A stretch of DNA of 24,511 nucleotides, from positions 1-24,511 of IMG/VR virus record IMGVR_UViG_2874956758_000006; one strand, 5' to 3'. Below, in pieces: positions 12,313-13,057 of this stretch. A program made the position numbers and the translations under genes. The number at the start of each line of letters is the position of its first letter. Positions within the stretch are counted from its first letter, which is position 1. The DNA comes from a virus. Lineage: Duplodnaviria > Heunggongvirae > Uroviricota > Caudoviricetes. The notes below the pieces were generated by a model. The model did not search any database, had not been told where the DNA came from, and saw only the letters and a list, made by a program, of their open reading frames with translations.

Positions 12313-13057
12313 TTGCCCGCACCTCTTTGACAGCGACATAGCACCGTTCGGTGATCAGGTAATCCAGGTTTTTACGCTTCCAGAACCCACCGCTGCCATT
12401 GGGACGATCTTCCAGCATCCAGCGACAGTTCTCAGCAACGTATCGCAGATAGGACTCCCATCGCTGCTGGTCAAAACCGAATTTCTGCCAGAACGTCCGC
12501 AGATTTTTTTTCCTGGTATCCGTCAGAATTTTCACTGATGGCATTTCAGGCAGGATTTCGTGATAGCTGTCCAGAACCCTCTGCCAGTCGATTTTGTTTT
12601 TTGCGCGATGACTGACCTGTGGATCTGCGTCAGCAGATCCACCAACATCAGGTTCATTGACTGGTTCAAAAGAGTGACTGGTTCTGGGTGCAACTCCTGC
12701 ACTGGCAACAGGTGCAACTCCTGCGCTACCCGATGCATCTGATGCACAATGTAGCGAATTATTTGCACTATTCCCCGGTAAATTTTCTGCACCATCCAGA
12801 TGAAGGAGATAGATATTACTTGTATTACCTTTTTCACCTTTCCGGGTGATTTTTTTTACCAGCCCGGACTCACAAAGCGCCGCAATATGATTAATCACAG
12901 AACGCTTGCTAATCTCGCACTGGTCAGCGATATACTGGTAGCTGGGCCAGCACTCGCCCTGATCGCTGGCATTATCAGCCAGCTTAATCAGAACCAGCTT
13001 ACGCAATGGATTACCCACTTTAATTTCCATTGCTTTTGCCATTAGTTTCATGCTCAT
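12302..13057 (-). CDS. phage replication initiator / replisome-organizer-like protein (N-terminal HTH, 251 aa)
   Basis: N-terminal wHTH (LRKLVLIKLADNASDQGECWPSYQYIADQCEISKRSVINHI); position upstream of the helicase with overlapping stop/start; linker contains repeated DNA. Confidence 0.6.
   Translation of the reverse strand: MSMKLMAKAMEIKVGNPLRKLVLIKLADNASDQGECWPSYQYIADQCEISKRSVINHIAALCESGLVKKITRKGEKGNTSNIYLLHLDGAENLPGNSANNSLHCASDASGSAGVAPVASAGVAPRTSHSFEPVNEPDVGGSADADPQVSHRAKNKIDWQRVLDSYHEILPEMPSVKILTDTRKKNLRTFWQKFGFDQQRWESYLRYVAENCRWMLEDRPNGSGGFWKRKNLDYLITERCYVAVKEVRANDR
12687..12724. repeat. two 14-bp direct repeats GGTGCAACTCCTGC spaced 24 bp start-to-start inside the initiator gene (iteron-like, candidate ori)
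   Basis: Exact copies at 12687-12700 and 12711-12724; encode the repetitive peptide ASAGVAPVASAGVAP in the linker. Confidence 0.4.

Follow-up and report, generated by a model that had tools for sequence, protein, structure and literature searches.

Where does a prophage begin to replicate when the gene for its initiator protein carries repeats within its own coding sequence? This question is raised by a stretch of 24,511 nucleotides (nt) from a Caudoviricetes virus (IMG/VR record IMGVR_UViG_2874956758_000006, positions 1 to 24,511), referred to here as the window. Its initiator gene, of 756 nt and 251 amino acids (aa), lies on the minus strand at 12302-13057 and contains an array of short repeats in the linker between the N- and C-terminal domains of the protein (12688-12792, minus strand). 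A sequence-only reading of this DNA had noticed two of the repeats and likened them to the iterons within the lambda O gene. Comparison with homologous initiator genes supports that likeness, and the array very probably represents the initiator-binding sites (iterons) of a prophage origin that, like the origins in lambda O and P22 gene 18, is situated inside the gene for its initiator.

Repeat array in the initiator linker

The initiator gene was assigned from its open reading frame (ORF), its domain and family matches, and its counterpart in a prophage of E. coli CFSAN029787. A match to the Pfam family HTH_36 (PF13730) covers residues 17-67 with an E value of 4.9e-13 and 49.1 bits against a gathering cut-off of 25, and a weaker DnaD_N match is also present. 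The protein matches PHROG 8540 (E 2e-67) and PHROG 345, both named "replication initiation O-like", while PHROG 24933 covers residues 140-251. Searches with the initiator against the sequences of solved structures returned chance-level matches only, and an NCBIfam search gave no useful match. Within the coding region, a winged-helix domain predicted to bind the origin occupies aa 1-88 (12794-13057, minus strand). The C-terminal domain, predicted to bind a replication partner, is encoded at 12302-12640 on the same strand and is a separate mosaic module that goes with a DnaB-type helicase. Repeats of about 15-20 base pairs (bp) between a DNA-binding and a partner-binding domain are a feature of lambdoid origins located within the initiator gene, and this is the arrangement found here.

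The 14-mer GGTGCAACTCCTGC occurs exactly twice on the plus strand, at 12687-12700 and 12711-12724, with a start-to-start distance of 24 bp. These are the two exact copies of the sequence-only reading, which had considered only two to be obvious. No further copy with fewer than three mismatches is present in the 24.5-kb window, where chance alone would give about two matches with up to three mismatches. Read along the gene strand, the two 14-mers correspond to units 4 and 5 of five in-register 15-bp dyads of the form GTGCA-N5-T(G/T)CAC, which extend over 12688-12792 (gene nt 266-370) with spacings of 24, 21, 21 and 24 bp. The search for degenerate copies thus added three units, recognized by their register and by comparison with homologues. 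All five are on the minus strand. Unit 1 (GTGCAGAAAATTTAC, gene nt 266, 12778-12792) has an imperfect right half-site with TAC for CAC, unit 2 (GTGCAAATAATTCGC, gene nt 290, 12754-12768) has CGC for CAC, and unit 3 (GTGCATCAGATGCAT, gene nt 311, 12733-12747) has CAT for CAC. Unit 4 (GCGCAGGAGTTGCAC, gene nt 332, 12712-12726) has GCG for GTG and holds the 14-mer at 12711-12724; unit 5 (GTGCAGGAGTTGCAC, gene nt 356, 12688-12702) has both half-sites intact and holds the 14-mer at 12687-12700. A palindrome ending in TGATGCA had also been described beside the two copies. Its sequence is indeed present, as GATGCATC at 12732-12739 followed by TGATGCA at 12740-12746, but it is not a separate element and belongs to unit 3.

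The motif was defined post hoc, after inspection of the data. With this definition and up to one mismatch allowed, the two strands of the window should together yield 3.9 matches; the gene strand has five, all of them inside 105 nt. Self-similarity of the gene at lags of 21 and 24 was above that of 2000 of 2000 codon shuffles. Tandem Repeats Finder reported no repeat in the initiator gene because the units are less than 70% alike and too degenerate for the program, so the array was delimited by register and by comparison with homologues. The rest of the window, replication region included, has no other repeat array. The linker encoded by the array is rich in Gly, Ala, Ser and Pro (GAENLPGN SANNSLH CASDASG SAGVAPVA SAGVAPRT).

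Reading frame and repeat specificity among relatives

Close relatives of the array are found in SfV-type "replication protein" genes, which include SfV orf39, ST64B sb42, mEp460 gp43 and the genes of many Stx2c phages, and which have matches in prophages of about 1000 of 5426 complete E. coli genomes. Gene nt 1-407 of the window initiator, comprising the N-domain, the array and 36 further bases, is 88% identical to these genes at the DNA level, and the shared module is 91% identical in amino acids. The homology ends abruptly at gene nt 407 (window position ~12651). Beyond this point the SfV-type genes have a different C-terminal module, and no helicase gene lies downstream of them. Their N-domain, array and right-hand element constitute the same module as in the window, with five units at identical positions (GTGCAGGAGATTCAC, GTGCAAATAATTCAC, GTGCAGCAAATTCAC, GTGCAGGAGTTGCAC and GTGCAGGAGATTCAC). 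The SfV-type units are cleaner, with GTGCA...T(T/G)CAC in all five, whereas window units 1-4 have one change each in the conserved GTG...CAC ends. Polymorphism inside the SfV-type arrays is too sparse for selection at core positions to be compared with that at spacer positions. Some SfV-type alleles have six or seven units that arose by 21-bp duplications of unit 4, so the array is length-polymorphic in natural populations. Six- and seven-unit alleles occur in E. coli 2014C-3307 and in IMG/VR 2526164662_000055, and the duplicated unit is GTGCAGGAGTTGCAC.

Such in-frame growth raises the question of whether the repeat is a feature of the protein only, that is, a Gly/Ala/Ser/Pro linker extended by slippage, with a DNA repeat that has no function of its own. 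Units in the window and the SfV-type genes are always 21 or 24 bp apart, which keeps them in one reading frame and yields x-A-G-x-x-P-like peptides. Copy number also shifts by whole 21-bp (seven-codon) steps, and the window units have drifted. We nevertheless regard a protein-level origin of the repeats as very unlikely, since the linker peptide is not conserved, and since more distant relatives separate the reading frame from the DNA repeat.

Homologues were fetched from phages of Vibrio, Salmonella, Klebsiella, Serratia, Stenotrophomonas, Pseudomonas, Shigella and E. coli, with 30-72% N-domain identity to the window protein. In 13 of 13 lineages scanned, repeats occupy the stretch that separates the winged-helix domain from a conserved RTSHSFEP segment. 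The same position is occupied in 16 array types from IMG/VR and in all 33 species genomes that could be analysed, these being the loci, out of 41, with enough flanking sequence to read. Across homologues with 30-91% N-domain identity there are two to seven repeats each, most of them clearly dyad-symmetric, and the unit sequence is lineage-specific. Examples are GGGCAGGAGCTGCCC in Stx2a_F451, GTGACACAGAGTCAC in mEp044, AGTGAY-N4-TGTCAC in Vibrio D290, TGTGCCGCCARAAAGCACA in S137, TATGCCA-N5-TGGCAC in Klebsiella phi12.5, and CCCGCAG-N4-TGCACC in MD8. Most lineages have their units 21-25 bp apart; shorter distances occur in SfII (15 bp), in Va_PF430-3 and in part of the MD8 array (both 17 bp).

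Five of these lineages include spacings that break the three-base register: 22/23 bp in mEp044, 23/22/24 bp in Klebsiella phi12.5, 25/23 bp in Serratia BZS1, 23 bp in Vibrio 236O40-1, and 17-23 bp in Pseudomonas MD8. Identical DNA units are therefore translated in different frames and encode different peptides, while the units remain dyad-symmetric and near two helical turns apart whatever the frame. This rules out a purely protein-level repeat for the family. As judged from these spacings, the repeats in the relatives appear to act at the DNA level, independently of the frame. The sequence-only reading had named two findings that would count against an origin, namely homologous genes lacking repeats at this position and a repeat that is merely a duplication of coding sequence. 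Neither was encountered: every homologue examined has repeats at the same position, and the relatives contain out-of-frame units whose sequence follows the class of the N-domain.

The relation between unit sequence and N-domain was followed by comparing the 16 viral-contig array types and the 33 species-genome loci with their recognition helices and C-terminal modules. The first ~45 aa of the N-domain are nearly invariant in the family; variation falls in the recognition helix and wing, which change together with the iteron type. Recognition helices of the form SV(I/M)NH pair with GTGCA or GTGAA units, (SV/TA)MR(H/A) with GTGAC units, SAVR with T(A/G)TGCC units, and STVKVH with GGGC(A/G)G units. 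Three different iteron types share one C-terminal type, and GTGCA units are combined with no fewer than four C-terminal types. The repeat sequence thus co-varies with the N-terminal domain class and not with the C-terminal module, a pattern that suggests recognition of the units by the winged helix and that likewise argues against a protein-level repeat. The same pattern is known from lambdoid O genes, in which origin specificity depends on the N-terminal half and the choice of partner on the C-terminal half.

This initiator class is also found on two circular records, E. coli plasmid pZ1323HEC0010-3 (44.6 kb), which has no plasmid replicon type, and Arsenophonus nasoniae paNv_CAN10 (42.6 kb), which is typed rep_cluster_2302. 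In both, the initiator is the sole evident replication gene in the flanks inspected. These ~40-kb "plasmid" records with the module are probably phage episomes or phage-plasmids, and they lend weak support to autonomous replication.

Right element and easily melted DNA beside the array

Directly after the last unit is a 36-bp right element, AGAACCAGTCACTCTTTTGAACCAGTCAATGAACCT (12650-12685, minus strand), which encodes RTSHSFEPVNEP. It contains two direct GAACCAGTCA repeats in the window and three in SfV. The encoded segment follows the pattern RTSHSFEPVxEP, and its synonymous sites are conserved as well. Among lineages with N-domains less than 80% identical, the same codon is used at conserved residues in 92.7% of cases (430/464) in the right element versus 39.5% (1088/2757) in the N-domain, the latter value being near saturation. 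An exact 28-mer core is present in at least 120 IMG/VR contigs, behind 16 arrays and before at least eight C-terminal modules. It is also present in 41 stretches of species-representative genomes, with hosts that include Pseudomonas, Shewanella, Photobacterium, Microbulbifer, Xenorhabdus, Photorhabdus, Providencia, Proteus, Erwinia and Enterobacter. The element thus ranges from Pseudomonas prophages (60% GC) to Xenorhabdus (37% GC) and accompanies at least 16 iteron specificities together with numerous C-terminal or helicase partners. In Pseudomonas prophages it retains 42% GC within flanks of 57-63% GC. Identity at synonymous sites across such distant prophages indicates that the DNA of the right element is itself constrained.

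Judged by where homology stops, the right element is also a mosaic joint, as its last base is the last at which the window gene resembles SfV-type genes. An alternative explanation of the locus would give the conserved segment and the repeats no direct role in initiation and would have them serve the exchange of N- and C-terminal modules. It accounts for the end of homology to the ~1000 SfV-type genes at nt 407, for otherwise unrelated initiator genes that match the window gene at nt 355-408 alone, and for the single 28-mer that links 16 array types to at least eight C-terminal types. The lambda record, too, places recombination points just to the right of the iterons. Such a role would leave the variable arrays unexplained, and the 36-bp synonymous identity across prophages of Pseudomonas, Shewanella, Xenorhabdus and E. 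coli requires purifying selection on DNA. We consider it highly improbable that exchange is the whole function of the segment. A role as a joint and a role in initiation are not exclusive.

A 10-bp perfect inverted repeat, GTGGATCTGC-TGAC-GCAGATCCAC, lies just past the right element at the start of the C-terminal module (12619-12642). It is absent from Vibrio phage V039C despite the same C-terminal domain type.

An adjacent AT-rich element had been suggested as something to look for beside the repeats. In gene orientation, the clearest AT-rich stretch lies upstream of the array, and no strongly AT-rich block lies downstream of it, where the right element has 42% GC. The upstream stretch is the least stable 30-mer of the gene (12806-12835, gene nt 223-252), ending 13 bp before unit 1, with a GC fraction of 0.32-0.33 and a nearest-neighbour stability z of 3.1. 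It is our first candidate unwinding element, and the right element is a second candidate for an unwinding or helicase-entry element. The least stable 30-mer is upstream of unit 1 in the window and in SfV, and on the right element in MD8 and mEp044. Over a 760-nt region, it adjoins the array in 24 of the 33 species loci, 15 times upstream and nine times at the right element; the latter cases include five of six Pseudomonas loci. The same scan recovers the AT-rich block 13-16 nt past the last iteron in both lambda and P22, and in P22 this block lies inside the annotated rep_origin. The array is therefore flanked by easily melted DNA, and either flank may be the one that opens.

On the plus strand, the AT-rich segment before the array also contains a terminator-like hairpin, TCACCTTTCCGGGTGA followed by T8 (12834-12857), antisense to the initiator. 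Sites of this kind are no commoner than in shuffled sequences, and the hairpin sequence also encodes the conserved wing KKITRKGEKG.

We propose the following sequence of events. Derepression would start rightward early transcription, from which the 251-aa initiator would be made. Dimers of its N-terminal winged-helix domain would then bind the five dyad-symmetric 15-bp units, which are about two helical turns apart and would thus present themselves on the same face of the helix. The bound units may be wrapped into a nucleoprotein complex, and the resulting strain would fall on a neighbouring segment that melts easily, either the upstream AT-rich 30-mer (12806-12835) or the right element (12650-12685). 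The C-terminal domain would bring the phage's own DnaB-type helicase, encoded just downstream, to the opened DNA.

More tentatively, and with somewhat less than even confidence, we suggest that the right element is the universal core of this origin family. Duplex DNA would be opened and held at this invariant segment with its two or three GAACCAGTCA repeats, the ~45 first residues of the initiator would bind one strand, and the same segment would provide a natural crossover point between specificity and helicase-recruitment modules. Plasmid Rep proteins bind repeats of their unwinding elements. If true, a universal core of this kind would give concrete form to the view that phages evolve as modules joined at "linker sequences".

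Known origins and the state of this prophage

According to PMC8022706, the coding regions of lambda O, P22 gene 18 and L gene 18 all contain iterons, which are distinct in each of them. In the lambda record, four iterons (ITN1-4) are located at O nt 349-433 with spacings of 20, 24 and 23 bp, and recombination points follow ~40 nt to their right. Lambda and the window share repeats within the coding sequence of the initiator itself, between the origin-binding and partner-binding domains. In both, the units are dyad-symmetric, 15-19 bp in length and about two helical turns apart (20/24/23 versus 24/21/21/24 bp), specificity resides in the N-terminal half, and a conserved element is found just to the right of the iterons. 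They differ in the number of units (four in lambda, five in the window), in the N-domain (Phage_rep_O versus HTH_36), in the position of the least stable DNA (an AT-rich block downstream of the iterons in lambda, upstream of the array in the window), and in the partner, which is a P-type loader for lambda and a DnaB-type helicase for the window. The window protein has no match to Phage_rep_O (PF04492) at E <= 0.01, compared with scores of 123-130 bits for lambda O and P22 gp18. Profile-profile comparison likewise gave no significant support for homology to the lambda/P22 N-domains (hhalign probability 2%).

The gene arrangement resembles that of P22, whose record shows a rep_origin inside gene 18 followed by the DnaB-like gene 12. 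In the window, too, an initiator gene with a predicted internal origin is followed by an overlapping phage gene for a DnaB-family helicase, so that the P22-type module is present with its helicase directly downstream. Weak similarity (22% identity, E 4e-4) links the C-terminal domain of the window protein to the C-terminus of P22 gp18, in keeping with a shared DnaB-type partner. Vibrio phage V039C has the same C-terminal domain type, again adjoining a DnaB-like helicase. Unlike the window protein, P22 gp18 has a Phage_rep_O N-domain, and neither its repeats (ATCGGTAAAAC-like) nor its AT-rich right element is related in sequence to the window counterpart. Lambda and P22 have different iterons and share an AT-rich element, ACACAAAAGACA-TAT(T)-ACAAAAGA, just to their right, to which the invariant right element described here is a direct parallel.

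Theta plasmids with Rep proteins of the pPS10/pSC101/RK2 type resemble the window in their winged-helix initiator, in a distance of about two helical turns between binding sites, and in a neighbouring segment that melts easily and contains short repeats. Their iterons, however, are intergenic and usually accompanied by DnaA boxes, whereas the window array is coding and has no DnaA box within 3 kb. Taken together, these comparisons support a classical kind of origin, lambda-style within an HTH_36-class initiator gene and with a P22-style helicase partner.

A single perfect site of the SfV-type consensus, GTGCAGGATATTCAC, occurs at 14978-14992, 2.2 kb from the array. By coordinates it maps to an unannotated (intergenic) stretch of CFSAN029787, ~110-125 nt upstream of a Rha-family regulator gene. 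Roughly 0.1 exact consensus-unit matches are expected by chance. The site could be a chance match or a secondary initiator site.

Initiator sites need not mark an origin, since plasmid iterons also function in autoregulation and handcuffing. The array could likewise have a mainly regulatory role, either in autoregulation, by blocking transcripts on their way into the C-terminal coding part and the helicase gene, or through pairing that controls copy number, with the origin elsewhere in the prophage. The known roles of plasmid iterons speak for such a function, as does the isolated site at 14978-14992, although with 3.9 matches expected at up to one mismatch this site is compatible with chance. 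Against such a role, the window has no second repeat array. The arrays are flanked by the least stable DNA of the gene and by an element conserved at the DNA level, as is typical of origins, and the lambda and P22 precedents put the origin exactly here. A mainly regulatory role is therefore very unlikely in our view.

Several observations weigh against assigning an origin to this array. Literature searches found no experimental binding or origin activity for this initiator family. A motif-free count of 5-N5-5 dyads in the window was marginal (P = 0.04), and the case is accordingly not rested on the dyad symmetry of this copy. Only unit 5 has both half-sites intact, the other four being imperfect. 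The spacings in the window and the SfV lineage are all multiples of three, which makes the test of frame independence uninformative for the window lineage alone, so this argument rests on the relatives. The window has no strongly AT-rich block downstream of the array of the kind seen in lambda and P22, and the upstream candidate at 12806-12835 doubles as coding sequence for the conserved protein wing. No DnaA box (TTWTNCACA) was found within 3 kb of the array; the whole window has two, at 5263 and 8924, a number not above chance. Lastly, the helicase gene carries an 11-bp frameshifting deletion at ~11990/11991 relative to the intact 467-aa helicase of CFSAN029787.

This last point concerns the present copy in particular. 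The DnaB-type replicative helicase gene (10920-12339, minus strand) overlaps the 3' end and stop codon of the initiator gene and is split into two overlapping ORFs of 171 and 384 aa, on which the Pfam DnaB (N-terminal) and DnaB_C domains fall separately. The initiator gene and its region are 99.9% identical to those of the Rac-like prophage of E. coli CFSAN029787, which has the same initiator allele and array beside the intact helicase, and the window itself represents a Rac-like E. coli prophage. In CFSAN029787, the initiator counterpart bears the annotation of a helix-turn-helix protein, and its neighbour that of a replicative helicase. The replication module in the window is probably not self-sufficient, and the prophage is probably replication-defective unless the deletion is a sequencing error. 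With four imperfect units and a frameshifted helicase, this copy may be inactive.

The surrounding genes follow the order of a lambdoid early-right operon. Based on Pfam and PHROG matches, a cI-like repressor gene (13937-14398, plus strand) is followed by cro/YdaS-like (13554-13835) and cII/YdaT-like (13148-13570) genes on the minus strand, and then by the initiator and the DnaB helicase. Promoter and terminator scans of 12200-14100 gave site counts not above those of shuffled sequences. The short gap between the cII/YdaT-like and initiator genes contains a 10-bp perfect inverted repeat, TGCCGAACCT ... AGGTTCGGCA, with its arms 45 nt apart (13077-13141), which may be a regulatory or terminator structure of the early-right transcript.

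The stretches fetched for SfV and mEp460 have no annotated origin. Literature searches on the unit and right-element sequences, or on origins of SfV-type phages, returned nothing relevant; their coverage was partial, and a prior description is possible. As far as we found, genes of this module are annotated merely as "helix-turn-helix protein" or "replication protein". The module of N-domain, array and right element occurs in about a fifth of complete E. coli genomes, so the present analysis places a probable replication origin for a very common enterobacterial prophage module, that of SfV, ST64B, mEp460 and many Stx2c phages. The window itself is an ordinary case, a putative lambda-style origin in a probably replication-defective prophage. 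The family as a whole provides a natural series of matched initiator and iteron pairs in which changes in winged-helix specificity can be studied, and its invariant right element is a candidate for both a common origin core and a point of module exchange.

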